Source: Acidobacteriaceae bacterium
GTDB taxonomy: Bacteria; Acidobacteriota; Terriglobia; Terriglobales; Acidobacteriaceae
NCBI GenBank assembly: GCA_035651235.1
Contig: DASRGC010000061.1
Coordinates: 27,263-67,262 of the forward strand
DNA: 40,000 bases
Direction: 5' to 3'
Part shown: in pieces, positions 7,943-26,073 of the stretch
Layout of the letters: every line of letters starts with the position of its first letter
Numbering within the stretch: position 1 is the stretch's first letter
Position numbers and translations under genes: made by a program
Notes under the pieces: model-generated
Seen by the model: the letters and a program-made list of their open reading frames with translations, nothing else
Database searches by the model: none
Told to the model about the DNA's origin: nothing

Positions 7943-7970
7943 GGCTTTAATTTTACTGAGAGGGCATGCC

Positions 7971-8720: not shown

Positions 8721-8722
8721 CG

Positions 8723-11323
8723 ATGGCATCCCTCACATATTCGACGGCGGCTCGGATTGCCACGCGCGAGCTTCGCAGCTCTCCCGGTAAGTTCGCGTTC
8801 GTTCTGCTTTCGGTTGCCGTAGGTGTGGCTGCGCTCACGGGCGTGCGCGGATTTTCCGCGTCGTTCCGCTCCATGCTTCTGCTGCGCGCGCGAAGCATCA
8901 TGGCGGCTGATATCGCAGCGCGCATGATGGAGGCACCCGCGCCAGCCGAGCAGGCGGCGCTGGATAAGCTTTCCGGGCTCGAGGCAACGACGGTCACCGA
9001 GATGCTCTCGATGGCTTCGTCAACCACGTCGATGGATCCGCTGCTGGTCGCGGTCAAAGCCGTCGATCCATCGAAGTATCCGTTCTACGGCGATGTGGTG
9101 CTGCAGCCGGCGATGCCCCTGCGCGATGCGCTCACAGATTCCACTGTGGCAGTAGGCGACGACTTGTTATTGCGCCTGCATCTGAAAACTGGCGATTCCA
9201 TCAAACTAGGCAACGGTAGCTTCCGCATCGCTGCGGTCGTGATGGACGAACCGGATCGGCTCACCGGAACCTTCGCGGCAGGTCCGCGAATTCTGATCTC
9301 GCAGCAGGCACTCGCCGGCACAGGACTGCTTGCGCCGGGAACGCGCGCAACGCGCCGTCTGCTCTTCAAGCTGCAGCCCACCGCCTCTGGTCAACCGGCC
9401 TCCGACGCGCATGTGGCGGAGCTGCGTAGCCAGTTGGAAACGATCTTGCCGGAGGCGCAGGTCAGCGATTACAGGGAAGCGAACCCATCGATTACGCGCG
9501 CTCTCGACGGAGCGACGGGCTTGCTCTCGTTAATGTCGCTGGTTGCGCTCGTGCTTGGCGCGGTAGGCGTTGCGATGGCGATGCGTGCACATCTCCAGCA
9601 GCGGCTGGACTCGATTGCGATTATGAAATCGCTTGGTGCGGGGTCGTCGCAGATCATTCGCATTTATCTGCTGCAGACGTTGCTGCTTGGGCTGGCCGGC
9701 TCTGTTCTCGGGTTGCTTTTAGGGTTCGCAGTGCAGCTGATGCTGCCGCTGTTTCTCGCAAAGCTGCTTCATCTCACACCAGGGTTCCGACTTGACGGAC
9801 ATGCAGCTCTGCTTGGGCTTGGCGCGGGCATGCTCACCACGCTGCTCTTCACGGTGCCGCCGTTGCTCGACATCCGCAACGTGCGCCCAATCCTTATTCT
9901 GCGTCGCGCAGTGGAGAACGAAGAGTCGCCGCTGTTCACGCGCGCAGCGAAACATCTGCGAGGCTCTGGCCTGCAGCTTCTTGCGACGGCGCTGATCCTC
10001 ATCGGGCTTGCAGCGCTCGCGGCGACGGTCGCGGACTCGCGGCAGATCGGTGGCTGGTTTGCGTTCGGGTTACTTTTCGCACTTCTCGTGCTGCTTGGCG
10101 CCGCCGCTCTCACGCTGCTGCTGCTGAAGATTTTTCTCAACACGACGCGCCGTCAACTTCCGTCGGTGCTGCGTCATGGGCTCGCAAATCTATATCGGCC
10201 AGGAAATCCCTCGGCGGCACTGCTTGCAGCGCTCGGACTGGGCGTAATGCAGATCGCGGCAGTGTCGATGGTGCAGCGATCGATCGTGGGTGAGATGCAG
10301 GCGACGACTGCTGCGAAGCTGCCGAATCTGTTCCTCATTGATATTGCGACCAACGAGGTCGACGGTGTGCGGTCGCTGCTCTCCGGGCAATCGAGCGTAC
10401 AGGGTAAGCCGGAGATTGCGCCCGTGATCTCGGCTCGCATTTCGGCGATCAACGACACGCCGTTTCAGCAGCTTCATCTCAAGCACGCTCCGCGCCGCGG
10501 CGTTATGTCCGTACAACTCACCTGGCCTCCCGCGCCGGATGCGCCTCCGCCTGGCGATAAGGTTGTGTCCGGTAAGTGGTGGACCGCGCAGCAGGCTACC
10601 GACGCCGCGCATCCACTGGTTGCAATCGAGAGACACGCGGCGGACCGACTGAATATCCACACGGGCGATCGGGTCACGTTTGCACCGCAAGATCAGCCGA
10701 TCACCGCAACCGTCGCCGCACTCTACGAGGCTGACAGCCAGCATGCCTTCTCACGCGCGGAGTTCATCCTCCCACAGTCCGCGCTGCGGGGGCTCCCGGT
10801 CACATGGTATGGCGGGTTGCATTGTGATCCCTCTGCAACAGGCCAACTTCGCCGCATCCTCTATCAACACTATCCAACGATCACCGTGATCGATGTTGCC
10901 GCCACGGTAGAAACGGTGCGGCAGGTGCTGCTGCAGATCAGCTACGTAATCCAGTTTTTGGCCGGCTTCAGCACCTTTGCCGGAATCGTGATTCTCGCGA
11001 GCGCAATCGCAGGCACGCGTTATCGCCGCATCCGCGAGGTTGTCGTGCTGAAGACACTCGGCGCGACGCGCCCGCGTATTGCCAGCATCTTCTCGATCGA
11101 GTTCGCCGTGCTCGGTTTGATTGCAGCGGTTATCGGGCTGATCTTTGCGAACGGTCTCGCACGCGTGCTACTCCGCCGCGTCTTTCATTTCGACTACCAC
11201 CTCAACATCGGATGGAATCTTGCCGCGCTCTGCATTACCGCGGCGCTCACCGTAACTGCAGGCTGGCTCGCGAGTCATCGTGTGCTCGGTCAGAAGCCGC
11301 TCGAGGTTTTACGCGAGGAGTAG
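8723..11323 (+). CDS. ABC transporter permease with duplicated FtsX-type domains (YbbP-like)
   Basis: 866 aa with two hydrophobic modules. Each is preceded by the FtsX-family motif (MKSLGAGSSQI and LKTLGATRPRI). Immediately follows the ATPase gene. Confidence 0.85.
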   Translation: MASLTYSTAARIATRELRSSPGKFAFVLLSVAVGVAALTGVRGFSASFRSMLLLRARSIMAADIAARMMEAPAPAEQAALDKLSGLEATTVTEMLSMASSTTSMDPLLVAVKAVDPSKYPFYGDVVLQPAMPLRDALTDSTVAVGDDLLLRLHLKTGDSIKLGNGSFRIAAVVMDEPDRLTGTFAAGPRILISQQALAGTGLLAPGTRATRRLLFKLQPTASGQPASDAHVAELRSQLETILPEAQVSDYREANPSITRALDGATGLLSLMSLVALVLGAVGVAMAMRAHLQQRLDSIAIMKSLGAGSSQIIRIYLLQTLLLGLAGSVLGLLLGFAVQLMLPLFLAKLLHLTPGFRLDGHAALLGLGAGMLTTLLFTVPPLLDIRNVRPILILRRAVENEESPLFTRAAKHLRGSGLQLLATALILIGLAALAATVADSRQIGGWFAFGLLFALLVLLGAAALTLLLLKIFLNTTRRQLPSVLRHGLANLYRPGNPSAALLAALGLGVMQIAAVSMVQRSIVGEMQATTAAKLPNLFLIDIATNEVDGVRSLLSGQSSVQGKPEIAPVISARISAINDTPFQQLHLKHAPRRGVMSVQLTWPPAPDAPPPGDKVVSGKWWTAQQATDAAHPLVAIERHAADRLNIHTGDRVTFAPQDQPITATVAALYEADSQHAFSRAEFILPQSALRGLPVTWYGGLHCDPSATGQLRRILYQHYPTITVIDVAATVETVRQVLLQISYVIQFLAGFSTFAGIVILASAIAGTRYRRIREVVVLKTLGATRPRIASIFSIEFAVLGLIAAVIGLIFANGLARVLLRRVFHFDYHLNIGWNLAALCITAALTVTAGWLASHRVLGQKPLEVLREE

Positions 11324-11328
11324 AGGTG

Positions 11329-11347
11329 AGCGGCGGGTTGACGGGTC
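11329..11347 (+). repeat. extra 19-bp unit: third copy of the 14-mer AGCGGCGGGTTGAC plus GGGT, the first 4 nt of the left TIR
   Basis: 11329..11347 agcggcgggttgacgggtc is a tandem copy of 11348..11366 agcggcgggttgacgggta (18/19 identical). Confidence 0.9.
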
Positions 11348-11361
11348 AGCGGCGGGTTGAC
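11348..11361 (+). repeat. left flanking direct repeat (putative target-site duplication) AGCGGCGGGTTGAC
   Basis: Exact 14/14 match to 26110..26123 in the same orientation. It abuts the outer end of the left TIR. Confidence 0.85.
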
Positions 11362-11397
11362 GGGTAGGGGGATAGGCAGCTGGAAAAGTGCACCCCC
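11362..11397 (+). repeat. left terminal inverted repeat (36 bp)
   Basis: GGGTAGGGGGATAGGCAGCTGGAAAAGTGCACCCCC is the reverse complement of 26074..26109 at 32/36 positions. The outer 14 nt and inner 16 nt are perfect; mismatches are confined to the central hexamer. Confidence 0.85.
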
Positions 11398-11407
11398 ATG
11401 CGACGGA

Positions 11408-11959
11408 TCATACTTCAGCGAGCAAACGGAAATTGGCTGCAGGCAATGTCGAGGTCCGCTGGCGGAGAATGCGATCCGGCAGGGGGCCCCGACACGCGGG
11501 GATGCTCCGAGATTCGGCAGCGGAGAAACGCGGGAATTGAGACGAACCACCTGCGGCGTCCATTATCAGAACGTCAAACCCTAACCGAATAGTCGCCTTC
11601 GCCATGGCCAGAATCCGTGTCCTTCTGATGCCATCGCCGAGGTCTGAAGTTTCACGTGCTCTATCGAGTTGCCGTAAAGTGTCGTCGACCCATGGTACGG
11701 AGCGAGCGGTGTCAAGCTCCCTTATCGACGCGACGAATGGAACTGCAGATTCGCGAACCCCGTTAATGGCGGACTTGAAAGCCAAGCGGGGCGCACGCAC
11801 ACGTGCGATTGCGACACCTACTTGGGCGGGGTTTCCAGCATTACTCCAATCCCGCTCAATCGAATAGACATGTATAGAATTGCTTGCAGCGCAAAAACTG
11901 ATTGTGAGTCGGTCCGTCTCGTTCCTCGTGTTGGAAACCGACCTGTTTTTTAACCTCAA
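11408..11959 (-). CDS. hypothetical protein (183 aa), coding status uncertain
   Basis: Longest ORF in the 590 bp between the left TIR and the mod gene. No recognisable motif and an Arg/Ala-rich composition. It may be a decayed gene or noncoding. Confidence 0.2.
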   Translation of the reverse strand: MRLKNRSVSNTRNETDRLTISFCAASNSIHVYSIERDWSNAGNPAQVGVAIARVRAPRLAFKSAINGVRESAVPFVASIRELDTARSVPWVDDTLRQLDRARETSDLGDGIRRTRILAMAKATIRLGFDVLIMDAAGGSSQFPRFSAAESRSIPACRGPLPDRILRQRTSTLPAANFRLLAEV

Positions 11960-11986
11960 GCAAGTATGAACTGAAAGACTCGAAGA

Positions 11987-13762
11987 ATGCCAACACTCGA
12001 TTGGATCGGCAAGAAGGCGGTCCTAAACCACCATCGCGAGGTCCCGTACCGACTCGTAAAGTGCGATCCGACGATGTCTGTGGGCAATCCAGGCAGCGGT
12101 AATCTGCTCGTCCAGGGCGACAATCTTGTTGCTCTCAAGGCACTGCTTCCCTATTACGCGGGTGAGGTCAAGTGCATCTATATCGATCCGCCATACAACA
12201 CGGGCAATGAGGGGTGGGTCTACAACGATGCTGTGAACAGTCCGGAGATTCGGGAGTGGCTCCACAAACAGGTGAAGGGCGAGGATGAGGACTTGACTCG
12301 CCACGACAAATGGCTCTGCATGATGTTTCCCCGACTCAGGTTGCTAAGCGAATTTCTCCAGGACGATGGCGTCGTTATTGTGAGCATCGACGATTTCGAG
12401 GCATACCGCCTGAGATCGATCATGGATGAAGTCTTCGGTCCGCGTAATTTTATTGCACAACTCGTTTGGGACAAGACACGAAAGAACGATGCCAAATTAT
12501 TTTCCGTCGGGCATGAGTATCTGCTTGTGTATGCAAAATCACTGCCACGTCTCCGCGAGTTGAAAACCGTTTGGCGCGAACAGAAGCCAGGGGCGACCGC
12601 CATCATCGCAAAATGGCAAGAGCTCAAGACCGAATACGGAGACGATTTCGCATCCATTCAGCTGAAACTTCGCGACTGGTACCGAAACCTGCCAGCTGGC
12701 AATCCATCAAAGAAGCTAAGCCGCTACAAATGGGTTGACAAATGGGGACCTTGGCGAGACCGAGACATCTCCTGGCCAGGAGGCGGAGGGCCTCGTTACG
12801 ATGTTCGGCATCCCGAAACGCACCTGCCATGTCTCGTTCCCGAAGCAGGATGGCGATTCGCAAAGCCGGAAGAAATGCAACGCCAAATCGACCTCGGACT
12901 TGTCCAGTTTCGCGATGATCACACTGAGCCCCCGTTCCGCAAGGCACATCTGCTTCCGGTACCGGAAGAGCTAGAGGCCGATCAGAGCGGTCCCAATGAT
13001 GATGAAGACGGCGATCAGGAGGAAGGTACGAACGGTGAACTAGCTGGACTTCAAGTGATGCCTAGCGTCATCTACAAACAGGCACAGGTCTCGGTCAAGC
13101 TGCTGCGAAAGTTATTTGATGGTCGCAAGGTTTTTCCCAATCCAAAAGACCACGAAATACTGATGCGTTTATTTCGCTACATAACAGGCCCCAACGATCT
13201 GATACTGGATGCATTTGCGGGGAGCGGATCTACTGCTCATGCTGTTCTTCAGTTGAACAAGGAAGAAAGCTCGAATCGCAGATTCATTCTTATAGAGATG
13301 AACGAGAAGATTGCTACGGAGATTACTGCCGAGCGAATCAAGCGAGTGATGAGGGGACACGCGGGTCTTCCGGCCCTTGGAGGCAGTTTTCGTTATTGCA
13401 CTATTACGGATGAGCTATTCAACTGCGACGGCCAAGTATCGGATAAGGTCAAGTTCTCTGCGCTTGCTCAACACGTCTACTTCACTGAGACCGGAGAGCC
13501 TCTGTCCACGTCGGTCGACAGAAAACGATCTCCGTTTATTGGAGTCTGCAACGGTACAGCATATTATCTTCTCTTCAATGGCATCCTCGGTGACAAGAGC
13601 GCAAACGGGGGAAACGTCCTGACGACAGCATTGTTACGTGAGCTGCCGGCACACGACGGACCGAAGGTCATTTTCGGAGAGGGCTGCAGGCTGGGAATCG
13701 ACACGCTGAAGCGCAAACGAATCACTTTCAAACAGATTCCCTACGAAATCAAGGTGAGTTGA
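11987..13762 (+). CDS. mod: Type III restriction-modification system methyltransferase (Mod), N6-adenine/N4-cytosine class
   Basis: Motif IV DPPYNTG near the N-terminus and motif I FAGSGSTAHA about 340 aa later, with a long variable (target recognition) region between them. LDWIGK N-terminus. Overlaps the res start. Confidence 0.9.
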   Translation: MPTLDWIGKKAVLNHHREVPYRLVKCDPTMSVGNPGSGNLLVQGDNLVALKALLPYYAGEVKCIYIDPPYNTGNEGWVYNDAVNSPEIREWLHKQVKGEDEDLTRHDKWLCMMFPRLRLLSEFLQDDGVVIVSIDDFEAYRLRSIMDEVFGPRNFIAQLVWDKTRKNDAKLFSVGHEYLLVYAKSLPRLRELKTVWREQKPGATAIIAKWQELKTEYGDDFASIQLKLRDWYRNLPAGNPSKKLSRYKWVDKWGPWRDRDISWPGGGGPRYDVRHPETHLPCLVPEAGWRFAKPEEMQRQIDLGLVQFRDDHTEPPFRKAHLLPVPEELEADQSGPNDDEDGDQEEGTNGELAGLQVMPSVIYKQAQVSVKLLRKLFDGRKVFPNPKDHEILMRLFRYITGPNDLILDAFAGSGSTAHAVLQLNKEESSNRRFILIEMNEKIATEITAERIKRVMRGHAGLPALGGSFRYCTITDELFNCDGQVSDKVKFSALAQHVYFTETGEPLSTSVDRKRSPFIGVCNGTAYYLLFNGILGDKSANGGNVLTTALLRELPAHDGPKVIFGEGCRLGIDTLKRKRITFKQIPYEIKVS

Positions 13763-16386
13763 TGGCCTTACAGCTTAAGAATTACCAGGAGCATTGCCTG
13801 AAAGTCTTGCGTGAGTTTCTGCGGGACGCCGCGAACATCGGCGCAAGGGCTGCATTTAACAAACGTGAGGAACTCCCCGTTAAGTATCGTGAGGTGGCGG
13901 GGTTGCCTGGCCTTCCATATGTCTGCTTGCGGGTCCCCACAGGCGGAGGAAAGACCATTCTTGCGGCTTCTAGCGTAGGAGTTGTAACCCAGGAATTCAT
14001 GCAGTCGGATCAATGTGTAGTCCTATGGCTTGCCCCCACAAGTGCCATCGTCCGTCAGACAATCAATGCGCTTCAAGATCGGACCCACCCGTATAGGCAG
14101 GCTCTGGCGACCGACTTCGGAGGCGATGTTGAGGTGCTGTCGATGGAGGAAGCATTGCGCGTAAGTAGGGCAACTTTGGACGGTGCAACAACCGTGATTG
14201 TGGGTACCCTGGCAGCGATCCGCGTTAGCGACACCGATGGTCGTCATGTCTACGAGACAAATGGAGCGTTGCAGCATCATTTCTCCGGGTTATCGGAGCT
14301 AGAACTCTCCACACTTGAGAAGACCGAAGAGGGAGTAATTGCGTACAGCCTCGCGAACGTCCTCAGGCTCAGGAGGCCGCTGGTCATCATGGACGAGGCG
14401 CATAACGCCCGCACCCCGCTGTCCTTCGAGACTCTGGAGCGGCTGAGTCCGTCGGGCATTCTGGAGTTTACTGCAACCCCGGCGAGCGAAAGCAATGTGA
14501 TTGTTTCGGTGTCCGCCGCGGAGTTGAAAGCCGAGCATATGGTAAAGCTGCCAATTCGGTTGGCCTCTCGTTCCCAATGGAAGGAAGCAGTTGGAGCTGC
14601 CGTCACTAAACAGCGGTTGCTTGAAAACCTCGCGAAAGAGGAGCAGAAGGCAACAGGGGAATACATCCGCCCCATCGTTCTCTTTCAGGCTCAAGCGCGC
14701 AGCGAGCACGAAAACACCGTGACCGTGGAGGTATTGCGCAAGTGTCTTTTGGAAGACTTCAGTATCCGGGAAGAAGAGATCGCTGAGGGAACAGGCCACA
14801 AGTGGGAGTTGCCTGAGAAGCTGTCCGCGGTCGGGCCGGTCAGATTCATCCTAACGGTTTCGAAATTGAGGGAAGGGTGGGACTGTCCGTTCGCATACAT
14901 TCTGTGCAGCGTTTCCAACCTGTCGAGTCGCACCGCGGTTGAGCAGATTCTCGGGCGTGTACTCCGATTGCCCGGGGCCACCACGAAGGTCAATGATGAC
15001 TTGAACCATGCATACGCCTTTGCGACTTCCGCTGACTTTGCACAGGCAGCAAATGGACTTACAGACGCCTTGGTGGAGAGCGGATTTGAGCGCTTTGAAG
15101 CCAAGCAGGTCGTCGAACCCGACCCAACATTGCCGTTTGGCGATATCAAAGGACCGCTTTTTGGGAAGAGCTTCACTGAGACGTTGGTCCAGGCTCCCAA
15201 GCTGCATGCGCTATCCAAAGAGATTCGCGAACGTTTTGCTGTCGTGGAGACTCCCGCGGATAAGCCGGATAGCCCCTCGGTTTTTGAGGTAACGTATTCC
15301 GGGCCACCTCTCACTAATGATGAAAAAGACGACATCAAGCGAGTTTGCGCGTCGGACGAGGACCGCACAGCCGTGGAACGGCTGGTATTGAAATCACGTG
15401 GCCACGCTGTGTACCCGGCGGCTCTGGGCGAGACTCTTTCCGTTCCGATGCTGGCCATAAGATCTGGTGGCCAATTGGACATCTTCGAAGAGCAGTTTAA
15501 GGAAGTGCCATGGGACCTCAGCCAGTGCGATCCCAGACTTACCGAGATTGACTTCAGCATCATTGAGTCCACCGGGAGAATGGCACAGGTTGATGTTGAC
15601 GAGTCGGGCAAGTTGCATGTGGATTTTGTCAGAGAACTCCACGAACAGCTCTCCTTTATCGACATTCGCGGACCGAAAACAGCCAGCGAACTCGCAGCTT
15701 GGTTGGACAGAAATGTTGACCGCAGTGACCGCCGCTATACAACTCAAGCGCAGATGGTGCTTTTCCTACGCCGTCTTGTGGACTACCTTGTCGCTGAAAG
15801 AGGTCTGCCACTGGAGGAGGTTGTTAGTGCGCGGTTCCGACTACGCGATGTCGCATCAGCAAAGATCCGTGATCACCTTTTGCGGGCGCATACGGTGGCC
15901 TTCCAGCAGATGCTGCCACCCAACGATGAAACAGATCTCGAAGTCAGTCCAGCACTCTGCTTCAGCTATCCGGCGGACCAATACCCGGCAAACCCTTACT
16001 ACACTGGCCGATTCAACTTTCAAAAGCACTTTTACGAGAAGCCAGGACAGTTGAACCCAGAAGAAGAAAAGGTTGCCGTATTGATTGACGGAATGTTGGA
16101 GGTCAAACACTGGGTACGGAACCTCGTGCGCCAGCCCGTTTGCTCATTCTGGCTTCCTACTCCCACTGACAAATTCTATCCGGACTTTGTCGCGGAGTTG
16201 AATGATGGCCGGTACATGGTGATTGAGTACAAGGGCAAGGACCGCAAGGACAACGTCGATTCGACAGAAAAGAAGACTATTGGCGAGGTTTGGGAGGCGA
16301 GAAGCAAAGGGCGCTGTGTTTTTCGCCTGGTGGGTATTGACGATTACCGAACTGTATTGCGCTCGGCAGTTGCCAGCTCGTCTTAG
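13762..16386 (+). CDS. res: Type III restriction enzyme Res subunit (SF2 helicase + C-terminal PD-(D/E)xK nuclease)
   Basis: Walker A VPTGGGKT, motif II IMDEAHN, motif III FTATP, motif VI-like QILGRVLR. C-terminal nuclease motif YPDFVAEL...MVIEYKGK. The ATG at 13762 overlaps the mod stop (TGATG). Confidence 0.9.
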   Translation: MALQLKNYQEHCLKVLREFLRDAANIGARAAFNKREELPVKYREVAGLPGLPYVCLRVPTGGGKTILAASSVGVVTQEFMQSDQCVVLWLAPTSAIVRQTINALQDRTHPYRQALATDFGGDVEVLSMEEALRVSRATLDGATTVIVGTLAAIRVSDTDGRHVYETNGALQHHFSGLSELELSTLEKTEEGVIAYSLANVLRLRRPLVIMDEAHNARTPLSFETLERLSPSGILEFTATPASESNVIVSVSAAELKAEHMVKLPIRLASRSQWKEAVGAAVTKQRLLENLAKEEQKATGEYIRPIVLFQAQARSEHENTVTVEVLRKCLLEDFSIREEEIAEGTGHKWELPEKLSAVGPVRFILTVSKLREGWDCPFAYILCSVSNLSSRTAVEQILGRVLRLPGATTKVNDDLNHAYAFATSADFAQAANGLTDALVESGFERFEAKQVVEPDPTLPFGDIKGPLFGKSFTETLVQAPKLHALSKEIRERFAVVETPADKPDSPSVFEVTYSGPPLTNDEKDDIKRVCASDEDRTAVERLVLKSRGHAVYPAALGETLSVPMLAIRSGGQLDIFEEQFKEVPWDLSQCDPRLTEIDFSIIESTGRMAQVDVDESGKLHVDFVRELHEQLSFIDIRGPKTASELAAWLDRNVDRSDRRYTTQAQMVLFLRRLVDYLVAERGLPLEEVVSARFRLRDVASAKIRDHLLRAHTVAFQQMLPPNDETDLEVSPALCFSYPADQYPANPYYTGRFNFQKHFYEKPGQLNPEEEKVAVLIDGMLEVKHWVRNLVRQPVCSFWLPTPTDKFYPDFVAELNDGRYMVIEYKGKDRKDNVDSTEKKTIGEVWEARSKGRCVFRLVGIDDYRTVLRSAVASSS

Positions 16387-16556
16387 GGGTTAAGCACCGA
16401 CCTAATTGACACTCAGCAACTCGGCTCGATCGGGCCTGGGAAGGATGGAGGCAAGACGCGTGGGTCGCGCATTGCAGCGCGCTTCAATAGTTGTCGTAGA
16501 CACAGGCATTCACCACGCGGAATCATTCCGCAACTCAGGATACTCAGGTCACGGCT

Positions 16557-18131
16557 CTAACGTCGGTTAATCCCGACGATCCTGGCGAGCACCATCCAAT
16601 GCCTTGGGTGCGGTAGCCGCCCCTTGCGGATCTCGTTCGCGTAGCCGGGCGATACTCCGAGGGCTTTGACGAGTGCCAGACGGGAAACCGACGGAAGAAT
16701 GGGCTGAATCCGTTTCGAGTAAAAATCCGGAATCAACCACGACGGCTGCGTTGAGGGGTCCCAATCCCACGCCGCCTGCGTGTTGATTGTCTGTGTCGCA
16801 GATCGTTTGGCTTGGGACTCTGGAGCGTGCGAAGTCTCGCGACCTATGCGCGCCACGTTTTGCATGTGCTGGACGCTGTCTGCTTGCCAACAGATGCCAC
16901 ACTGCTTCGATCGACCGGCGAGTTGCGCGCCGCATGACCGGCAGATGTTGATCGGCTGGACGGGAGCCTTAGCTCTAGGAAGCGGATCGGCCCCCTTCAC
17001 TTCTCGCCGATGGCGTTGCGTTAGGCGCGCCGGTAGTTGGAGCGAGCGAGGTTTGCTCGAACGGAAGAGTTCCTGAGCGAACCATTCGGCGACGGGGGCA
17101 ACCAGCCTTGCCCAGGTAGGAGAGGTCTGTGAAAGCCGCTCGGCGAACTGAGCCATCAATCGGCAATTGCCGTTGTGCTCCTCGAAAAAATGGTTCCGGG
17201 ACAGAGGTGCCGACTTGAGCCAATCCAAAAGAAACTTGTCGACCTCTGGCCGGATGGGCTCCATGAGATCGCAGGCCAAGCTGTCACGCGACGGTGTGTC
17301 GACGTGCAATACACCGATGCCAGGATCGAGACCGAGCGTCGCTGCGGCTAACCGCGCTTCCGCTTCGAGAATCGCATAGAGGTAATTCAACATTGCGTTA
17401 ACTGGATTGGCAGCGAGCCGAGGTGAACCAGTCAAAGGAGAAACTCGCGATCCAAATGTCTGCCAGTGAGCGGGGACGCGCGGCAGATCCTTACGCGGAA
17501 ACGCGATCGATAGCGAGCGCCATGCTGCCCAATAGACCTTGGCACCTTTCGACTCGATTAGCCTCAGAGCATTGACGGATCCGACCTCTGCCAATTCCGA
17601 GCGAATTTCTTTGATTGCAAGAGCCGCTGTCTCGTCCTTGAGGTCATCGTTGGCGACCCTTTGCTGACCGGCAAGCTTGCGGTCGACGATCTCTCGGCTG
17701 AGGCGAAATCCCACGCCATTGTCGAGTGCGAGGGATTGAGCGCGTCTGAGCTTGGCTTCAGAAGGACGCACAGGGCCTGTGTTGAGAAGAACCAGACCGT
17801 CGCGTTCAAGCATTGCGAACGAAGCTTTTTGATCAGCGAGCCATCGCAACGCAGACAATGAAACAACACCATCAGTACCGATCACGACGAGGCGTTTGAG
17901 ATCGTGGCCCACGCGTGGCAACCGGCAGCTTCTTCTATCTGAGCCGATGCCATCCTCAACAAGCAAATGACCGCGATCTACACGGACGGATATTCCGTAT
18001 CCCGACAAGACCACGACTCCAAGCCTGGGCTTGATTGGGAGCGCGCCTGAGGCCTCTTTAGAAGCATCATCCTGTCTCTTAGAGCTGCGCACCCTCCTTC
18101 TCGTTGGCGTAGCTAAGCTGCTTATTTTCAT
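16557..18131 (-). CDS. cas1: Cas1-family integrase (casposase-like) with C-terminal zinc ribbon and HTH
   Basis: Cas1 N-terminal beta-domain pattern (VVLSGYGISVRVDRGHLLVEDG ... LKRLVVIGTDGVVSLSALRWLADQKASFAML). Catalytic Glu in LIESKGAKVYW. Core motif NPVNAMLNYLYAILEAE...GLDPGIGVLHVDTPSRDSLACDLMEPIRPEVD (His276, Asp288/Glu291). Extension with CRSC...CGIC (aa 397-414) and terminal HTH (LALVKALGVSPGYANEIRKG). Confidence 0.85.
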   Translation of the reverse strand: MKISSLATPTRRRVRSSKRQDDASKEASGALPIKPRLGVVVLSGYGISVRVDRGHLLVEDGIGSDRRSCRLPRVGHDLKRLVVIGTDGVVSLSALRWLADQKASFAMLERDGLVLLNTGPVRPSEAKLRRAQSLALDNGVGFRLSREIVDRKLAGQQRVANDDLKDETAALAIKEIRSELAEVGSVNALRLIESKGAKVYWAAWRSLSIAFPRKDLPRVPAHWQTFGSRVSPLTGSPRLAANPVNAMLNYLYAILEAEARLAAATLGLDPGIGVLHVDTPSRDSLACDLMEPIRPEVDKFLLDWLKSAPLSRNHFFEEHNGNCRLMAQFAERLSQTSPTWARLVAPVAEWFAQELFRSSKPRSLQLPARLTQRHRREVKGADPLPRAKAPVQPINICRSCGAQLAGRSKQCGICWQADSVQHMQNVARIGRETSHAPESQAKRSATQTINTQAAWDWDPSTQPSWLIPDFYSKRIQPILPSVSRLALVKALGVSPGYANEIRKGRLPHPRHWMVLARIVGINRR

Positions 18132-18162
18132 GCATTTATGATACTCTCCGGGTGCTTGAATG

Positions 18163-18735
18163 TCAGCCGTCGGACTTGTATTTTGCGCAGATTCGTTGCA
18201 CGGTACGAAGGCTCAAACCGGTCCTGTCTGCAATGCGTTGCTGGGCAAAACCCGTCTTGACTCCGTCTCTCTTCAGTCTTTCGACCTCATGACATATTGA
18301 TCGACATTCTTCCTCACTTGGCATCGTCGGGGGTCTGCCTCCGCCTCGATGATAAGGAAGAATCCCAACCATTCGTTCCGCATTCGAACGCCAATCCGGC
18401 AGCAACTCCTTCAATACGAAACTCAAGAAATGCTCAATCTTCGGTACGTCTTCGTCCGGAAATGCCGCGAAGATTGCGGTTGCCTTCTCTCTCGTATCGA
18501 TCATCCCCAAGATTTCATAAAAGAACTCTGGTCGAACTGAGTCGGGTTCATCTCTCTGATACATTTCGCGCGCGAGCTTGTGAAGCCATGGCGCTGGAGA
18601 TCTGTTCTTGTCCTGACATTCGCGGCGGAGTCTTGCGATGGCTTCTTCGTAGCTGTCAGCCCCACTGATCGCCAGGAGGTGTTCGATCACCTTTTCGTAG
18701 GTTGGCTGAAGTTTTCTTTGAGCCTCTTCCGTCAT
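18163..18735 (-). CDS. hypothetical DNA-binding protein with C-terminal resolvase/Hin-type HTH
   Basis: 190 aa. The C-terminus GGGRPPTMPSEEE...GFAQQRIADRTGLSLRTVQRI resembles HTH_7-type domains. Sits directly upstream of, and co-oriented with, the Cas1 gene. Confidence 0.6.
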   Translation of the reverse strand: MTEEAQRKLQPTYEKVIEHLLAISGADSYEEAIARLRRECQDKNRSPAPWLHKLAREMYQRDEPDSVRPEFFYEILGMIDTREKATAIFAAFPDEDVPKIEHFLSFVLKELLPDWRSNAERMVGILPYHRGGGRPPTMPSEEECRSICHEVERLKRDGVKTGFAQQRIADRTGLSLRTVQRICAKYKSDG

Positions 18736-18761
18736 TTCGCCAAAACTACCCCCAACCAGTT

Positions 18762-19430
18762 ATGGCAAAAGAATATGCCAAAAGAGGAGACGGGCTTGTT
18801 GATGCAGCTGCCGTTAGGCAGCATGCAGCCATGAAACGTCGATCCTCAAAGAAAGTCTCACCCAAACAGTCTGCCAGGCCATCTCGGGCGAAAGCCAAGC
18901 CCGGAACGACTCCGAAACGGAGATCCAGGACGAGCCGTGCCCCACGAACAGCGGAAGCATTAGCCGCGATGCCTGAGAATGCCCAGGATCAATGGGCGAG
19001 AGCTACCCGCGTGATCCAGAAGATGCGACGTGAGGGCATCTCGGTCACACGCGCCGCTAAGGAGTATGGCATCAGCCGCAAAAAGGTCGTCGATCTTGCC
19101 GGATCAGCCCTGCGGAAACAAACGAATGGCCGTTACGTAGCAAAGCGATTCGACAAATTGCTTCGCGTATTGGTGATCCCGTCTCGTCAAGGACCGATGG
19201 AAATTGCAGTACGCGACTCGCGAACGGCATCGAAGATCGCCGCCTATAGTGAGGCTGTCCGAAAGTTTGTACAGACTGGCGATTCCTCGGCCCTTCGCCA
19301 ATTCAAGAAACTCAAGTTGAAGGATGCGTCTGGAAATCCGATCAAGTTCTTAACAGATACGAAAGAGCTCATGCGCTTGGGACACGCTGGAGTACTTTCC
19401 TTCGAATCTCTGTACGCGAGGGCAGCCTGA
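18762..19430 (+). CDS. hypothetical basic protein with internal HTH
   Basis: The ATG at 18762 is divergent from 18735. Lys/Arg/Pro-rich N-terminus, then GISVTRAAKEYGISRKKV (HTH-like). The stop overlaps the next start (TGATG). Confidence 0.55.
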   Translation: MAKEYAKRGDGLVDAAAVRQHAAMKRRSSKKVSPKQSARPSRAKAKPGTTPKRRSRTSRAPRTAEALAAMPENAQDQWARATRVIQKMRREGISVTRAAKEYGISRKKVVDLAGSALRKQTNGRYVAKRFDKLLRVLVIPSRQGPMEIAVRDSRTASKIAAYSEAVRKFVQTGDSSALRQFKKLKLKDASGNPIKFLTDTKELMRLGHAGVLSFESLYARAA

Positions 19431-19918
19431 TGCCTACCCGCGACCCCATCCGATCGGCAACACGGCGAAGCAAAATACGCAGACGTTTTCCGCCAGGAGC
19501 GGCTTGCCACACGTGCGGGGAGACATCCCCGTTGGCACTGATCCCTTATTCCGAGCCTCTGATTTGCGCCGAATGTGAGCGTGTTCGAAACAACCAATCG
19601 ACCCGCGATTGGCACCACCCCGCCGGTAGCGCAAATCACGACCTAACGGTTCCGATCCCAGTCAACGCTCATCGCTCTCGGCTTAGCGAATCGCAGTATG
19701 ACTGGCCATCACGGACTCTTAGAAATCGCCACCGAAGTCGTCTGCTCGCTGCTGCAGCGTGCATTCGGGGGTTGATTGACATGATGAAGTACCTGCTCGA
19801 CGAGCTCGGTCGCTGGATCCCGGAATATTTGGAGTCACTGGATACAGCACTGATGGATGAATTCGGCGAAGAGTGGCCCAAAAAAGAAGCAGACAAGCTC
19901 GAAGGAGAAGACAAATGA
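19430..19918 (+). CDS. putative zinc-ribbon / HNH-like nuclease
   Basis: CHTC...CAEC cysteine pairs followed by DWHHPAGSANHDLTVPIPVNAH (HH...N...N-x-H spacing). Translationally coupled to PolB (ATGA overlap at 19915..19918). Confidence 0.45.
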   Translation: MPTRDPIRSATRRSKIRRRFPPGAACHTCGETSPLALIPYSEPLICAECERVRNNQSTRDWHHPAGSANHDLTVPIPVNAHRSRLSESQYDWPSRTLRNRHRSRLLAAAACIRGLIDMMKYLLDELGRWIPEYLESLDTALMDEFGEEWPKKEADKLEGEDK

Positions 19919-20214
19919 CTGACAAGACAGAACAGCAGCCATATCCAATACCCGTCGCGATTCGTGTCTACCCTGAACCGCCGAGAGACAGGAAGCCACG
20001 TGAGCACGTCAAAGCCATTCGACCCGACACTATGATCGTGTTCGATACCGAGACCACAACTGATCCCACGCAGCGTTTACTCTTCGGCTGCTACCGCTTC
20101 ATCGAGAACGGAATATCTGTTGAAGAAGGGCTTTTCCACGCGCCCGATCTCTCAACCTATCAAGTGAAGACACTCCGCGAGTACGCGGCTCGAAATCATT
20201 CGAGCCACCAATAG
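19915..20214 (+). CDS. polB: family B DNA polymerase, fragment 1 of 3 (N-terminus with Exo I)
   Basis: Exo I motif IVFDTETT (Asp 20044..20046, Glu 20050..20052). The frame ends at TAG 20212..20214 while the next frame is already open from 20168. Confidence 0.75.
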   Translation: MTDKTEQQPYPIPVAIRVYPEPPRDRKPREHVKAIRPDTMIVFDTETTTDPTQRLLFGCYRFIENGISVEEGLFHAPDLSTYQVKTLREYAARNHSSHQ

Positions 20215-20293
20215 AGAACCTCTCAGACTCATCACTCTCGGTGATTTCTTAGACAAACTGTTCAAAGCAGCGTACAAGGGTCGGTCCTTAGTT

Positions 20294-21034
20294 GTGGGTT
20301 TCAATCTCCCATTCGATCTCTCGCGGCTCGCGTTCAACGTAACGCCCGCACGTCGCGAGTTCGGAGGAGGATTCTCCTTCGGCTTGTGGACCTACACCGA
20401 TGAGAACCGCGTGGTTCGACTCGACCCCAATCGCCCGCGGATCACGATTAAGCACATCGATAGCAAGCGTGCCCTGATCAGTTTTACTGGCCGGAAGTCG
20501 CCGGATGAAGTCGATCTCATCCCGGAGGGATCAGTGGAGGGAACGCCACAACGTGGATACAAGTTTCGCGGCCACTTTCTCGATCTAAAGACACTCGCAT
20601 TCGCGCTCACTGACCGCAGCCATACTTTAAGATCCGCGTGCGAAGCATTTGGCGTGAAGCGTGGAAAGATCGAAGCGGAGAAGCATGGGGAGATCACTGA
20701 TGAATACATCGATTACAACCGTCGTGACGTGGAGGCGACAGCGGAGCTTGCGTTAGCTCTGCTAGCCGAATTCGACCGTCACCCGATCCTGTTGGCTGAA
20801 ACGAAAGCATTCTCGGCGGCTTCGATAGGCAAAGCCTATCTCCGATCGATGGTGATCACGCCGATTCTCGAAAGACAATCGGATCTGTTGCCCTACGTGG
20901 GATACGCTCAAACGGCCTACTTCGGAGGTCGCACCAGCGCGCATATTCGCAAGACTCCGGTTCCTGTCGTCTATACGGATTTTCTATCGATGTACCCCAC
21001 CGTGAACTCCCTCACGGGTCTCTGGGGTTATTGA
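20294..21034 (+). CDS. polB: family B DNA polymerase, fragment 2 of 3 (Exo II, Exo III, Pol motif A)
   Basis: LVVGFNLPFDLSRL (Exo II), YIDYNRRDVEAT (Exo III, YxxxD) and VYTDFLSMYPT (motif A DxxSxYP, Asp at 20978..20980). This reading frame is open from 20168 and has no convincing start of its own. Confidence 0.75.
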   Translation: MGFNLPFDLSRLAFNVTPARREFGGGFSFGLWTYTDENRVVRLDPNRPRITIKHIDSKRALISFTGRKSPDEVDLIPEGSVEGTPQRGYKFRGHFLDLKTLAFALTDRSHTLRSACEAFGVKRGKIEAEKHGEITDEYIDYNRRDVEATAELALALLAEFDRHPILLAETKAFSAASIGKAYLRSMVITPILERQSDLLPYVGYAQTAYFGGRTSAHIRKTPVPVVYTDFLSMYPTVNSLTGLWGY

Positions 21035-22953
21035 TTACCAGAGAGATCAAGGTCATCGATCACTGCCAGGCTGAGATCATTCGATTCCTGAAAGGCATCA
21101 CGGTCGATCAACTGTTTGATCCAAGGACGTGGAGGAAGCTGAGAGCCTTCGTCAAAATCGTCCCGAATGGAGACATCCTGCCTGTTCGTGGGTCTTTCAA
21201 TTCCGCAAGCAACGACTGGCAAGTTTCGATCAATCACGTGTATGCGGGTACGGATGAGGATCGCCTTTGGTATTCGCTGCCTGACGTCGTCGTATCGGTC
21301 CTCCTGACCGGGCGCATTCCCGATATCGTCGATGCCTTCCGAATCGAACCGTCGAAGCAGGTTCTCCCAAATCTGCGACCAACGAAGTTTCGCGGTGAAA
21401 TCCGCATCGATCCCAGAAGGCAAGACTTCTTCACACTAGTCATTGAAGAGCGAAAACGCCTCCGTTTCCGAAAGGATCTAACGAAGGATGGACGGGAATG
21501 GCTGGACAAGGGACTTAAGGTATTGGCCAACTCAACGAGCTATGGAATCTATGGCCAGATGGATCGGAAGGAATCGAACGAGCGAAAGACCGTCAAATGC
21601 CATGGCCTCGACCCCAATCCCTACGAATGCAGGGTGCAGAATCCCGATGTGCCTGGAGAGTTCTGCTGTCCTCTATTGGCATCTCTGACCACTGGTGCAG
21701 CACGCCTTATGCTTGGACTGCTGGAGAAGTGTGTCACGGACATGGGTGGCACCTACGCGATGGAAGACACCGACTCCATGGCAATCGTCGCGACTCAGAA
21801 GGGCGGATTGGTGCCGTGCGAGAGCGGCCCCTTCAAGCTGCGCGACAGCACAAGTGCGATCAAAGCGCTTAGTTGGGCGAGAGTGCGCCAAATCGTTGAC
21901 CGATTCGAGAAACTCAACCCCTACGACCGCGCTGCTGTCCCTGGATCGATCCTGAAGGTTGAGAGCTGCAACTTCGATCGAAAGACGAAACGACAGCGAG
22001 AGATATGGTGTTTTGCGATCTCGGCAAAGCGATATGCGCTCTTCGTCAAAGCCAGATCGGGTCGACCCGCCCTCTTATGCGAGGACGTGAATTGTGAGGA
22101 GGACCATTGGTCGGAACATGGGCTCGGCCATCTACTCAACCCGAGCGACATCGATAAGGATGATCGGGACTGGATCGCTCACGTTTGGCAGTGGATCATC
22201 GAAGGATGTTCAGCGAACCGCAGGCCGGTCCCGTTTGCCAAGCTCCCGGCCATCGGAAGACTCACGGTCTCTAGCCCGTCACTCTCGAATCCGCTGGCCA
22301 GCCTGAACGTAGCGAAGGCCTACGCTCAGTGGATCAAGCCGTTCAACTTTCTCGTGACGTGTCATGTCAACCCATTCGGTCACCCTAAAGACTGTGACCC
22401 CAAGCGTTTTCACCTGATCGCGCAATATCAGACCGACTCGAAGATGTGGGTGAGGTCACAATGGATCGAACAGTATTCGGGCAAGAGCTATAAAGTGACC
22501 ACCGACCTAGAGGGTCGCGATCGGCGAACTGCTTGGGTAAAGACATACGCAGATGTGATCGAAGAGTACGCTCATCACCCGGAAGCAAAATGTGCTGACA
22601 AAGACGGAAATCCGTCAGGTCAACCGACAATCGGGCTGCTCTTTCGGCGGCATGTGCGCATTGGAGAGATCGTCGCGATAGGCAAGGAGTCGAACAGCCT
22701 CGAAGAGGTCGACGCGGGGCTACTGCATTCCGCCGATCAGGTTTATACAGTGTATCCAGACAGGACAAGGGATTTCTGGGCGCGGGAGATCGCGTCGAAG
22801 TTGAAGAAAATCCCTCTGTCTGTTTTGATCAGGGAGACCGGATTGTCACGGCGAATGCTGGTTAACGTCCGTGGCGGCCAGGTACGCCCGCATCGGCGTA
22901 ATCAAACCATACTGATCGAGCTTCTTCATCGCCTAGCAGCGCAACAGTGCTAG
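21031..22953 (+). CDS. polB: family B DNA polymerase, fragment 3 of 3 (Pol motifs B and C, thumb)
   Basis: KVLANSTSYGIYG (motif B KxxxNSxYG, 21517..21555) and AMEDTDSM (motif C DTD, 21766..21774). There is no canonical start codon at 21031; it continues fragment 2 after a -1 frame change. Confidence 0.75.
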   Translation: MITREIKVIDHCQAEIIRFLKGITVDQLFDPRTWRKLRAFVKIVPNGDILPVRGSFNSASNDWQVSINHVYAGTDEDRLWYSLPDVVVSVLLTGRIPDIVDAFRIEPSKQVLPNLRPTKFRGEIRIDPRRQDFFTLVIEERKRLRFRKDLTKDGREWLDKGLKVLANSTSYGIYGQMDRKESNERKTVKCHGLDPNPYECRVQNPDVPGEFCCPLLASLTTGAARLMLGLLEKCVTDMGGTYAMEDTDSMAIVATQKGGLVPCESGPFKLRDSTSAIKALSWARVRQIVDRFEKLNPYDRAAVPGSILKVESCNFDRKTKRQREIWCFAISAKRYALFVKARSGRPALLCEDVNCEEDHWSEHGLGHLLNPSDIDKDDRDWIAHVWQWIIEGCSANRRPVPFAKLPAIGRLTVSSPSLSNPLASLNVAKAYAQWIKPFNFLVTCHVNPFGHPKDCDPKRFHLIAQYQTDSKMWVRSQWIEQYSGKSYKVTTDLEGRDRRTAWVKTYADVIEEYAHHPEAKCADKDGNPSGQPTIGLLFRRHVRIGEIVAIGKESNSLEEVDAGLLHSADQVYTVYPDRTRDFWAREIASKLKKIPLSVLIRETGLSRRMLVNVRGGQVRPHRRNQTILIELLHRLAAQQC

Positions 22954-23064
22954 CTTTCTAATTCTGAGGCGGAACCCGGCAACCGGCAAACGTAGACCGA
23001 AAGGCTGGTGAAGCAATACGATCGTCTGCGGTTATGATGGTTACGATTCCACTGAGCAATTCTG

Positions 23065-24174
23065 ATGGCCTATTACATTGACCTCTTCTCGCCCGAAACG
23101 TATCGAGCCTTTAGCAATTCAGACCGGACGGTGTCAGGATTTCGACCCCGGCATGAAAGCCTTGCGAAACGTATCCTTCCGGGCGACACGTTTGTTTGCT
23201 ACGTGACAAAGCTTTCACGCTGGATTGGATTGCTGAGAGTCGATGCAGGGCCTTACGAGGACAGTACTCCGATCTTCGCTACAGAAAACGACCCATTCAG
23301 CATTCGCTTCAAGGTGAGCAGTGAGGTGTGGCTCGATCTCGAGAAGGCGGTACCGATCCATGATGAGGAGATATGGAAGGGGCTTTCTTTCACCCGTGAA
23401 CTGTTGCACAACTCAATTGCGTGGACGGGAAAGGTGCGCGGTAGCCTTGTGCGGCTTGAGGATTCGGATGGAGAATTCATTGCTCAAGTGCTCAGACGGC
23501 AGCTATTGACCCCCAAACTTTATCCAATCGATGAGCAGGACAGGAAGAAACTCACGACTCATACCATTGTCCGCTCCGACAAGGTTGTAAGTGTTTCGGT
23601 GCCCGACGATCCTCCACCGGTCGAAGAAGCAGCTTCCACGCCGGATACGGAAGCGCCGGAGCGTGAATCCATACGTATGCAAGCCCTGATCGCACAAATT
23701 GGTCACCAGATGGGAATGTCCATTTGGATTCCACGATCCGATCGCGAGCGGGTCTTGCGAGAGTGGAAGGACTCCAACGCGCGCGTCCTCGATCGTCTGC
23801 CTCTCAACTACGACGACACAACTCTTAAGACCATCGAACAGATCGATGTTCTTTGGCTTCGAAACCGTTCCATCATCCGCGCGTTCGAGGTGGAGCACAC
23901 GACATCAATTTATTCCGGGATCTTACGTATGGCTGATCTACTCGCGCTTCAGCCAAACATGGATATCAATGTGCACATTGTTGCTCCAGTAGCGAAACGT
24001 GAGAAGGTGTTCCAAGAGATCAGGCGACCTGTTTTTTCTCTGCTGGACCGCGGACCTCTCGCCGAAAGCTGTACCTATCTGCCCTACGACGCCTTGCGCG
24101 ACATTGCGCAACTGAAGCATCTCGAACATCTGTCCGACAAGGTTCTCGATGAGTATTCCGAAGAGGCAGAGTGA
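23065..24174 (+). CDS. EVE/PUA-like domain fused to a PD-(D/E)xK-type nuclease-like domain (candidate modification-dependent endonuclease)
   Basis: The N-terminal 150 aa follow the EVE-like layout (MAYYIDLFSPE..., GDTFVCYVTK...WIGLLRV, ...RGSLVRL). The C-terminal part has IDVLWL...IIRAFEVEHTTSI...VHIVAP, a D...E-x-E/K nuclease-core-like pattern. Confidence 0.55.
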   Translation: MAYYIDLFSPETYRAFSNSDRTVSGFRPRHESLAKRILPGDTFVCYVTKLSRWIGLLRVDAGPYEDSTPIFATENDPFSIRFKVSSEVWLDLEKAVPIHDEEIWKGLSFTRELLHNSIAWTGKVRGSLVRLEDSDGEFIAQVLRRQLLTPKLYPIDEQDRKKLTTHTIVRSDKVVSVSVPDDPPPVEEAASTPDTEAPERESIRMQALIAQIGHQMGMSIWIPRSDRERVLREWKDSNARVLDRLPLNYDDTTLKTIEQIDVLWLRNRSIIRAFEVEHTTSIYSGILRMADLLALQPNMDINVHIVAPVAKREKVFQEIRRPVFSLLDRGPLAESCTYLPYDALRDIAQLKHLEHLSDKVLDEYSEEAE

Positions 24175-24289
24175 TTCTTGACTGAACGAATTTGCGAATC
24201 ACCTGTCTAAAGCAAAGTGATTCGCGACAGCGGGTCCTTATATGAATACGATTGACGGAAAAACTTATTTCGGGCTGACTTAACAATTT

Positions 24290-25498: not shown

Positions 25499-25500
25499 GT

Positions 25501-26022: not shown

Positions 26023-26073
26023 GCTTGGTCTCGGTGTTTCGCGGCCAGATCGACGCTGACTGGCTCTGAGTGA

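Follow-up and report, generated by a model that had tools for sequence, protein, structure and literature searches.

A family 3 casposase with a C-terminal Cys4 module and helix-turn-helix domain in an acidobacterial casposon

In a stretch of 40,000 nucleotides from a soil Acidobacteriaceae bacterium (assembly GCA_035651235.1, contig DASRGC010000061.1, positions 27,263 to 67,262; hereafter the window, in whose numbering all positions are given) an open reading frame (ORF) with an ATG start, located on the reverse strand at 16557–18131, encodes a Cas1 homologue of 524 amino acids (aa) that, to judge from its sequence, is catalytically intact and is a casposase rather than an orphan Cas1. We consider it very probable that this ORF is the casposase of a complete family 3 casposon, a self-synthesizing transposon, and that its long C-terminal tail most likely constitutes a DNA-recognition and positioning module for site-specific integration. 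Casposases are the presumed ancestors of the spacer integrase of CRISPR systems. According to two publications, biochemical work has so far been limited to archaeal casposases of families 1 and 2, and the role of their essential helix-turn-helix (HTH) domain is unsettled (PMC6977970; PMC8464041); the abstract of a 2021 paper in Nucleic Acids Research likewise has it that little is known of casposases outside family 2.

The casposase and its element

The Cas1 portion of the protein—an N-terminal beta domain followed by the catalytic alpha domain, residues 36–335 (17127–18026, reverse strand)—was delimited by Pfam, by Foldseek, and by the invariance of the catalytic residues. The family Cas_Cas1 (PF01867) covers residues 42–330 with an E-value of 3.7e-40, which match bears out the recognition of a Cas1 domain in an earlier note on this ORF that had been made from the letters of the sequence. 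The active site which that note had described as intact proved to be so: E193, H276, D288, and E291 are invariant across 25 homologues of 54–81% identity, as well as in 12 more distant ones of 34–40% identity, none of the four being substituted. By sequence, two solved structures came nearest, 4N06 (A. fulgidus Cas1, 2.4e-23) and 6OPM (M. mazei casposase, 4.9e-22), both alignments spanning the motifs LIESKGAKVYW, GVLHVD, and CDLMEP. In a full-length AlphaFold2 model built on the family alignment the Cas1 core was modelled confidently, and a Foldseek search with that model ranked the casposase 6OPM first (E = 1.5e-17), before every CRISPR Cas1 structure. Close homologues come from the Acidobacteriaceae, e.g., from Edaphobacter bradus, and a search of plasmid proteins returned as its sole match an unrelated Aeromonas CRISPR Cas1. 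Every residue invariant in the family alignment of 25 homologues is kept in the window protein, and the enzyme may still be functional.

The gene lies within an element of 14,748 bp (11362–26109), a complete casposon of lower GC content than the left flanks, which is inserted in the chromosome, in the intergenic space between a macB-like ABC-permease gene and a tRNA-Gln gene (26208–26281), the latter standing outside the right end. Two terminal inverted repeats (TIRs) of 36 nt bound the element: the left one (GGGTAGGGGGATAGGCAGCTGGAAAAGTGCACCCCC; 11362–11397, forward strand), which is part of the strongest inverted repeat of the window, and the right one (26074–26109, forward strand), 89% complementary to the former. 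Directly outside both stands the same 14-mer, AGCGGCGGGTTGAC, as a perfect target-site duplication (TSD) of 14 bp (left copy at 11348–11361, right copy at 26110–26123, both read on the forward strand); the 36-bp TIR and the 14-bp target of which the earlier note had spoken are therefore real. Three features by which a casposon is recognized were present, namely, the four catalytic residues, the TIRs together with a TSD, and a family B DNA polymerase (PolB) encoded inside the element, the last interrupted in this copy by two frameshifts. No CRISPR repeats and no Rfam CRISPR-DR match were found in the window, nor did the Pfam scan of the called genes within ±10 kb detect any other cas gene, cas2 included; the designation "solo Cas1" given to the protein in the earlier note accordingly holds with respect to Cas2 and a CRISPR array, though not with respect to its context, the gene being part of a complete casposon.

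An empty counterpart of the insertion site was available in a metagenomic contig (L030), which is collinear with window positions 6006–11324 at 77.7% identity and, after 12 nt, resumes with positions 26115–26282 at 95.8% identity; the joining of 11324 to 26115 across those 12 nt indicates that the site is empty in that relative and contains one copy of the target. The same macB/tRNA-Gln site is also occupied in the loci L011, L001, and L023, and the intergenic space seems to be an insertion hotspot. As separate observations, we record that the element occupying this site in the locus L027 (OBLV0100076870.1) has another TIR (GGGGATAGCTATAGGGGAGGGAAAATTCACCCCC), and that in the locus L029 (Ga0070732_10164584) the site contains an unrelated insert of ~1 kb. 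Identity with the window was found for a contig of the ENA (ERZ27279688:k141_488682) and for a Logan contig assembled from SRR5581483, and a scan of metagenomes with a strain-specific 24-mer gave no match. A Logan contig of 14,747 bp was considered as a possible excised form of the element and rejected, since it corresponds to window positions 11392–26138 with an assembly break in the TIR.

The C-terminal tail and its distribution

Beyond the Cas1 core extend ~190 residues, made up in succession of a basic linker that contains an LTQ motif, the Cys4 module, a hairpin of two helices, and an HTH of probable XRE type; the coordinates of these four parts are all given for the reverse strand. The first part (residues 336–395; 16947–17126), delimited by the alignment and the model, consists of a conserved helix at 337–357 and then the basic linker, of low model confidence, in which the motif L370-T371-Q372 is invariant among the 25 homologues and residues 359–391 are disordered in the AlphaFold2 model, with a predicted local distance difference test score (pLDDT) below 50 at 359–373 and 386–391. 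The second, the Cys4 module CxxC-x10-CxxC (16884–16946), is modelled at a pLDDT of 83–95; its cysteines C397, C400, C411, and C414 (CRSC-x10-CGIC, nt 16943–16890, i.e., residues 397–414) are invariant in the 25 homologues, in agreement with the cysteine pattern that had been read from the sequence. In the model, a short beta knuckle bears C397 and C400, and C411 and C414 open a long helix at 412–434, which predicted fold looks more like a treble clef than a classical zinc ribbon; moreover, the match of the tail to the Pfam family Zn_Ribbon_1 is insignificant (E = 0.29), so that of the "zinc ribbon" of the earlier note the Cys4 module stands and the ribbon label looks loose. The third part, two long antiparallel helices (residues ~412–456; 16764–16883) that join the zinc module to the HTH, was likewise recognized from the alignment and the model; the second of those helices comprises residues 437–456, and both K442 and W457 are invariant in the 25 homologues.

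The fourth part is an HTH domain, probably of the XRE/Cro type (residues 457–524; 16560–16763), assigned through the alignment, the model, and weak Foldseek and Pfam matches. It forms four helices (residues ~468–518, nt ~16728–16578) at a pLDDT of 84–97, and the terminal HTH that had been proposed at nt 16685–16572, equivalent to residues 483–520, is thus conserved and confidently modelled. The recognition helix S494-x-x-Y497-A498-x-x-I-R-K-G precedes P507-H508-P509-R510, and the terminal motif S494..Y497-A498..P507-H508-P509-R510-x-W512 is invariant in the 25 homologues. When residues 389–524 were modelled alone the pLDDT was 92; a Foldseek search of the PDB with this C-terminal model gave no match below E = 0.3, and none of the matches to known DNA-binding zinc fingers was significant. 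The weak matches (E > 0.3) involved the last ~55–60 residues and were all to HTHs of the XRE/Cro/lambda-repressor type—including HipB, SinR, 434 Cro, and C-proteins—at a root-mean-square deviation of 2.5–3.5 Å. In addition, Pfam HTH_3 matched 7 and HTH_31 matched 5 of 17 isolated HTH segments, the best HTH_3 value being 7e-4, under the gathering score; and the motif GVSxxYxxxIRKG..P....L..L of the domain fits the XRE pattern.

A hidden Markov model (HMM) of residues 455–524 also matched the very end of PolB on its C-terminal side, with E-values of 2e-4 for the window, 1e-4 for L011, and 0.06 for L010, as well as 2e-5 for the PolB fragment of L001, in the constant register W..+I.P.L...P.S.L.+.TGLSRR.L...R.G..RPH.R. 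By these sequence matches the HTH is common to the casposase and PolB in family 3, as has been published for family 2; the recognition helices nevertheless differ, being SRRMLVxxRxG in PolB versus SxxYAxxIRKG in Cas1.

The tail had been thought to be possibly a lineage-specific module for recognizing the TIR or the target; such a role is plausible, but the supposed lineage specificity must be abandoned. At E ≤ 1e-5 a word-indexed search retrieved 5,312 proteins, of which the 120 best are mostly ~450–570 aa long. At E ≤ 1e-30 an exhaustive search of 50%-identity representatives yielded 1,110 clusters; of the 150 best of these representatives (36–48% identity), most align from residue ~35 to residue ~520 and so share the architecture of ~500–530 aa from end to end, a result that excludes a frameshift or gene-fusion artefact as the origin of the extension. 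Among 99 distant representatives at least 480 aa long, the HTH HMM matched 96 and the pattern CxxC-x8-17-CxxC was present in 81, with a modal spacer of 10–11, most of the remaining 18 carrying a CxxC...CxxxC variant. The succession of Cas1, zinc module, and HTH is therefore, as far as sequence comparison can tell, common to more than 1,000 clusters at 50% identity from several phyla.

For the assignment to a family we compared the protein by BLASTP with the reference Cas1-domain sequences in the alignment file of Krupovic et al. 2014 (PMC4046053). The family 3 references were the closest, with AceAut-C1 first (45.5% identity over 290 aa), followed by the S. spinosa casposase (38%), StrAlb-C1 (35%), and NitAL212-C1 and HenMar-C1 (32% each); those of family 2 gave 26–29%, and those of family 1, 24–25%. 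In a bootstrapped neighbor-joining tree, which was built without references of families 4 and 5, the window protein and AceAut-C1 formed a clade at a bootstrap of 100 inside family 3; the grouping that unites the protein with NitAL212, StrAlb, S. spinosa, and AceAut also had a bootstrap of 100, and HenMar joined at 53. Further characteristics of family 3 were found as well: a bacterial host, an HNH endonuclease, a small HTH protein, and an intergenic insertion, casposons of this family having been reported as intergenic (PMC4779613).

The architecture itself is not new, having been published for related bacterial casposons in 2014: in AceAut-C1 the Cas1 C-terminus was described as extended by both a ZBD (zinc-binding domain) and an HTH (Krupovic et al. 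2014, PMC4046053), which arrangement a 2023 review restates (PMC9939771). The AceAut-C1 tail was represented in our comparison by a proxy, P0272, a protein of 504 aa whose identity to AceAut in the Cas1 domain is 75% and whose alignment with the window protein extends across both the Cys4 module and the HTH, as do the alignments of homologues in metagenome-assembled genomes (MAGs) of Acidimicrobiia, Thermomicrobiales, Gaiellaceae, Binatia, and Solirubrobacteraceae; the relatives that share both parts in the alignment thus include MAGs of Actinomycetota, Chloroflexota, and Binatia. Across P0272 and this multi-phylum alignment C397, C400, G401, C414, Y497, P507, and H508 are invariant. The zinc module is accordingly shared with described casposases of the AceAut-C1 type and is absent from those of M. 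mazei and Aciduliprofundum boonei, and these sequences place the casposase in the bacterial family 3, within the AceAut-C1 subclade, and make the tail a conserved ancestral feature of a large subclade of that family that includes AceAut-C1. Our literature search found no paper tying casposons to Acidobacteria. Taken together, the family 3 grouping, 6OPM as the best structural match, and the context of TIR, TSD, and PolB uphold the identification as a casposase with a C-terminal HTH.

Target sites, proposed integration, and competing explanations

We read eleven related loci, one of which, L001, is a nanopore MAG whose own cas1 is split and which is a poor comparator. Perfect 14-bp TSDs together with TIRs were present in eight complete elements, and seven independent sites (those of the window, L010, L012, L016, L018, L019, and L020) were compared in a common register. 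The triplet TTG occupies TSD positions 10–12 in six of the seven, and TAnACT follows exactly 18 nt after the TSD in six, being shifted by 1 in the seventh; the flanks display, at a constant offset from the TSD, the motif TTG(A/G)C-N17/18-TA(C/T/G)ACT with the geometry of a sigma-70 promoter, where the background of TTG-N20-TAnACT over all the sequence compared is 1.4e-5 per position. In the window this bipartite, promoter-like target reads TTGACC-N17-TACACT (26119–26147, forward strand), with its −35 box within the TSD, ~60 nt upstream of the tRNA-Gln gene, and is the only sigma-70-like match between 26000 and 26400 (0.1 expected). In six of the seven sites the motif points away from the PolB/HNH end. 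Since the −35 box lies inside the TSD, it is duplicated by the insertion, and a promoter-like unit remains whole at the downstream copy. Furthermore, the −10 consensus does not require the C that is invariant as the fifth letter of TAnACT, which circumstance suggests recognition by a specific protein.

With respect to the TIRs, that of the window also occurs in L010, L011, and L018–L020. We observed that the repeat consists of two conserved blocks with ~6 variable nt between them (window 11362–11397, L012 1125–1161, L016 1412–1444): a tip, GGGTAGGGGGATAGG, which in some relatives is GGGATAG(A/G)AGACAG and which in the window resembles an internal duplication (GGGTAGG followed by GGGATAGG), and an inner block, GAAAAGTGCACCCCC, that holds the palindrome GTGCAC.

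From these elements we propose the following course of integration. By homology with the characterized casposases, the Cas1 core would link the 3′-OH termini of the casposon to the target at a stagger of 14 bp, whose repair would yield the 14-bp TSD. As to which part of the tail would contact which DNA, the division that we prefer, to which we nonetheless grant somewhat less than an even chance, has the HTH reading the TAnACT box, which is invariant and stands 18 nt away from the TSD, with the zinc module and the hairpin contacting the TTGAC end of the target or else the TIR; jointly, these parts would place the catalytic sites such that the duplicated 14 bp span the −35 box and the downstream gene retains its promoter. 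The recognition helix SxxYAxxIRKG is unchanged in L012 and L016 despite their different TIRs, and the target motif is the same, which constancy would argue, albeit weakly, that the HTH reads the target and not the TIR.

Several considerations weigh against this proposal. The presence of the same type of HTH at the C-terminus of PolB argues for a binding to the ends rather than to the target, although the PolB recognition helix has another sequence. The zinc binding of the Cys4 module is suggested by the cysteine pattern alone, and the promoter function of TTGACC-N17-TACACT by matching to a consensus only. A search of PDB sequences with the HTH profile produced no significant match at all and did not retrieve the C-terminus of 6OPM, so that it lends no support to a homology between this HTH and that of family 2, and the finding that the latter is essential can be transferred here only by analogy. 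Finally, the polB gene of the window is frameshifted, by reason of which this copy may no longer be autonomous.

The strongest competitor, which we regard as a genuine though minority possibility, is that the HTH of both the casposase and PolB binds the casposon ends—for instance, at the conserved inner part of the TIR, AAAAGTGCACCCCC, in which the palindrome GTGCAC lies—so that integrase and polymerase would both be brought to the termini and the target would be chosen by the Cas1 core or the zinc module. The shared register of the HMM matches at the PolB C-termini of the window, L011, L001, and L010 speaks for such a role, as do the HTH reported on PolB in family 2 (PMC4046053) and the conservation of the inner TIR block among most of the sibling elements; yet in L016 that inner block is divergent (AAAACTGCCCC) and the recognition helix of the casposase is the same, and the helix of PolB is, as described above, unlike that of Cas1.

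We find it doubtful, in turn, that the window copy is a decaying and immobile relic whose casposase is intact by chance or is kept in trans for other copies. This explanation draws on the state of polB (19916–22953, forward strand), a gene recognized by Pfam and by comparison with intact orthologues, which is split into three ORFs with the C-terminal HTH kept. Relative to those orthologues—intact PolB is of 1006–1031 aa in the siblings—two deletions break the frame, one of 2 nt near 20201 and the other of 1 nt near 21031, for a net change of −3 nt that leaves only the middle ~272 codons out of frame, and both breaks are identical in two assemblies. The TIRs, moreover, are less complementary than the 97–100% found in L010 and L011. 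On the other side stand the perfect TSD, the retention of all family-invariant residues in the casposase, and the preservation of PolB itself, which has 81–88% protein identity to the intact L011 orthologue over most of its length and whose fragments are each 62–88% identical to the intact orthologue without further stop codons; the inactivation is therefore recent, and the element was probably disabled only recently for self-replication.

Less likely still, in our estimation, is a mainly architectural function, in which the zinc module and the hairpin would not read sequence and would instead serve as a device for oligomerization or bridging that replaces Cas2 in the tetramer. Casposases act without Cas2, as tetramers (PMC6977970), the modelled hairpin is long and helical, and no known DNA-binding zinc finger matches the fold of the tail significantly; the family 2 casposase, however, tetramerizes without a zinc module, and the ZBD of NitAL212-C1 is N-terminal (PMC4046053), so a fixed bridging position is not required. 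That the protein is an adaptation Cas1 orphaned by the loss of its array and cas2, or a fusion of two genes by annotation, as the public label "CRISPR-associated endonuclease Cas1" of its homologues might invite one to believe, can be dismissed as refuted by the absence of an array and cas genes, the context of TIR, TSD, and PolB, the grouping with casposases, and the full-length architecture kept in more than 1,000 clusters.

We note further that a third copy of the target AGCGGCGGGTTGAC stands upstream of the left TSD (11328–11341, forward strand), within a 19-bp tandem repeat of 2.2 units (11325–11365), so that the sequence there reads TSD-GGGTC-TSD-TIR. The interposed GGGTC (11342–11346, forward strand), whose GGGT equals the first 4 nt of the TIR and whose C equals its last nt, is a possible excision footprint; L011 and the empty site of L030 contain a single target copy. 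The order TSD-GGGTC-TSD-[element]-TSD would fit an excision that left a 5-bp footprint and was followed by a re-insertion at the copy nearest the TAnACT box; replication slippage of the 19-bp unit is an alternative source of the third copy. Only tentatively do we put forward a joint reading in which the casposons of this clade would home to sigma-70-type promoters by means of the tail, whose zinc module and HTH would read the bipartite TTGAC-N17-TAnACT signal and set the 14-bp staggered cut in such a way that the −35 box is duplicated and the host gene, here tRNA-Gln, does not lose its promoter. In that reading the TSD-GGGTC-TSD would be the first footprint of a casposon excision and re-insertion at one site, and the elements would act as site-specific shuttles of interchangeable defence cargo such as Type I, II, and III restriction-modification, GmrSD, and SIR2.

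Gene content, cargo, and comparison with known systems

In the siblings the core genes have a common synteny, in which cas1 shares its strand with a small HTH gene and the opposite strand carries two further small genes together with polB and the HNH gene. In the window the small HTH protein (190 aa; 18163–18735, reverse strand) is encoded directly upstream of cas1, with weak matches to Pfam HTH_23 and HTH_29, and is syntenic in all the siblings. The first of the two small genes (222–242 aa; 18702–19430, forward strand), also syntenic in the siblings, has a weak HTH_psq match; the second (162 aa; 19430–19918, forward strand), which is Cys-rich (CxxC...CxxC), precedes polB in all the siblings, where it has 162–178 aa, and had no Pfam or PADLOC match. 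The product of this last gene displays CxxC-x17-CxxC and then a His-rich stretch (DWHHPAGSANHD...NAH). After polB come, all on the forward strand, a Type II restriction-enzyme-like protein (NmeDI_C, PF27126; PADLOC REase_II, 2.4e-16; 23065–24174), the HNH endonuclease (24290–25498; Pfam HNH at 21.9 bits against a cutoff of 21.4 bits, E = 1.9e-4), and, at the right end, a protein of 175 aa with a weak HEPN match (25495–26022; E = 0.035).

Beside cas1 there is a variable slot, occupied in the window by a Type III restriction-modification (R-M) system with its methyltransferase Mod (11987–13762, forward strand; Pfam N6_N4_Mtase, 1.3e-31; PADLOC MTase_III, 1.2e-164) and its helicase-nuclease Res (13759–16386, forward strand; Pfam ResIII, 1.2e-12; PADLOC REase_III, 5.1e-131). 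The slot holds Type I/IIG R-M genes in L011, L018, and L019, plus GmrSD in L011; an Eco57I-like enzyme and GmrSD in L010; a Bpu10I R-M system in L012; and SIR2-domain genes in L020 and L021. By this gene content the casposons of the clade look like site-specific carriers of defence genes. PIN-TPR genes are also among the variable-slot cargo of the siblings (L010–L021).

The region to the right of the element (26.3–37 kb), of low GC content, was considered as a second island and rejected, being a glycan-biosynthesis cluster without mobility genes. To the right of the tRNA-Gln, positions 26300–37000 have a GC content of 51–57% and encode MarR, SDR, DegT aminotransferase, GT2, GNAT, methyltransferase, and PMT_2 proteins; most of this region is absent from the related contig L023, and by gene content it is a variable polysaccharide locus.

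What the present locus adds to the published architecture is the bipartite promoter-like target, the control provided by the empty site, and the possible excision footprint. The clade offers a bacterial, mesophilic, and very abundant model of family 3, with sharp 36-nt ends, a 14-bp TSD, an empty-site reference, and a conserved bipartite target, in which what the tail binds and how the integration site is measured become directly testable.

Among known systems, AceAut-C1 is the nearest: its casposase likewise has Cas1 followed by a C-terminal zinc-binding domain and HTH (PMC4046053), it is the closest reference by both sequence and tree, and its insertion is intergenic with a TSD of 14–15 bp. 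It differs in its size of 20 kb with TIRs of 602 bp, as against 14.7 kb and 36 nt in the window, in its host phylum, and in the segment that separates the zinc module from the HTH, which is shorter in the acidobacterial clade. NitAL212-C1 of Nitrosomonas sp. AL212, also of family 3, resembles the window element in its 14,414 bp, its 36-bp TIR beginning GGGGTA, its 14-bp TSD, its intergenic insertion, and a casposase with both ZBD and HTH; the ZBD, however, is N-terminal there and not C-terminal (PMC4046053), and the Cas1 domain is, as stated, only 32% identical.

The family 2 casposase of M. mazei (6OPM), the best structural match for the Cas1 core, also bears a C-terminal HTH, which is essential for integration in that enzyme (PMC6977970) though not detectably similar in sequence to the window HTH; and in family 2, too, the C-terminal HTH of the casposase is present on PolB (PMC4046053). 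The M. mazei and Aciduliprofundum boonei casposases share with our proposal a site-specific integration set by the sequence beside the TSD, whereas they have no zinc module and a tail of 60–70 aa, in contrast to the ~190 aa found here, and belong to archaeal hosts, where tRNA 3′ ends or other intergenic sites are targeted. The Cas1-Cas2 integrase of CRISPR has the same fold and the same catalytic tetrad and carries out a staggered integration that duplicates the repeat, but the window contains no Cas2, array, or leader, and the CRISPR Cas1 has no extra C-terminal DNA-binding tail. By analogy only, Tn7 and its attTn7 site offer a further parallel in a sequence-specific and "safe" intergenic insertion that leaves the neighbours functional and whose site is reused; the Tn7 transposase (TnsAB/TnsD) is unrelated, and the recognition element here is promoter-like instead of lying in a coding sequence.

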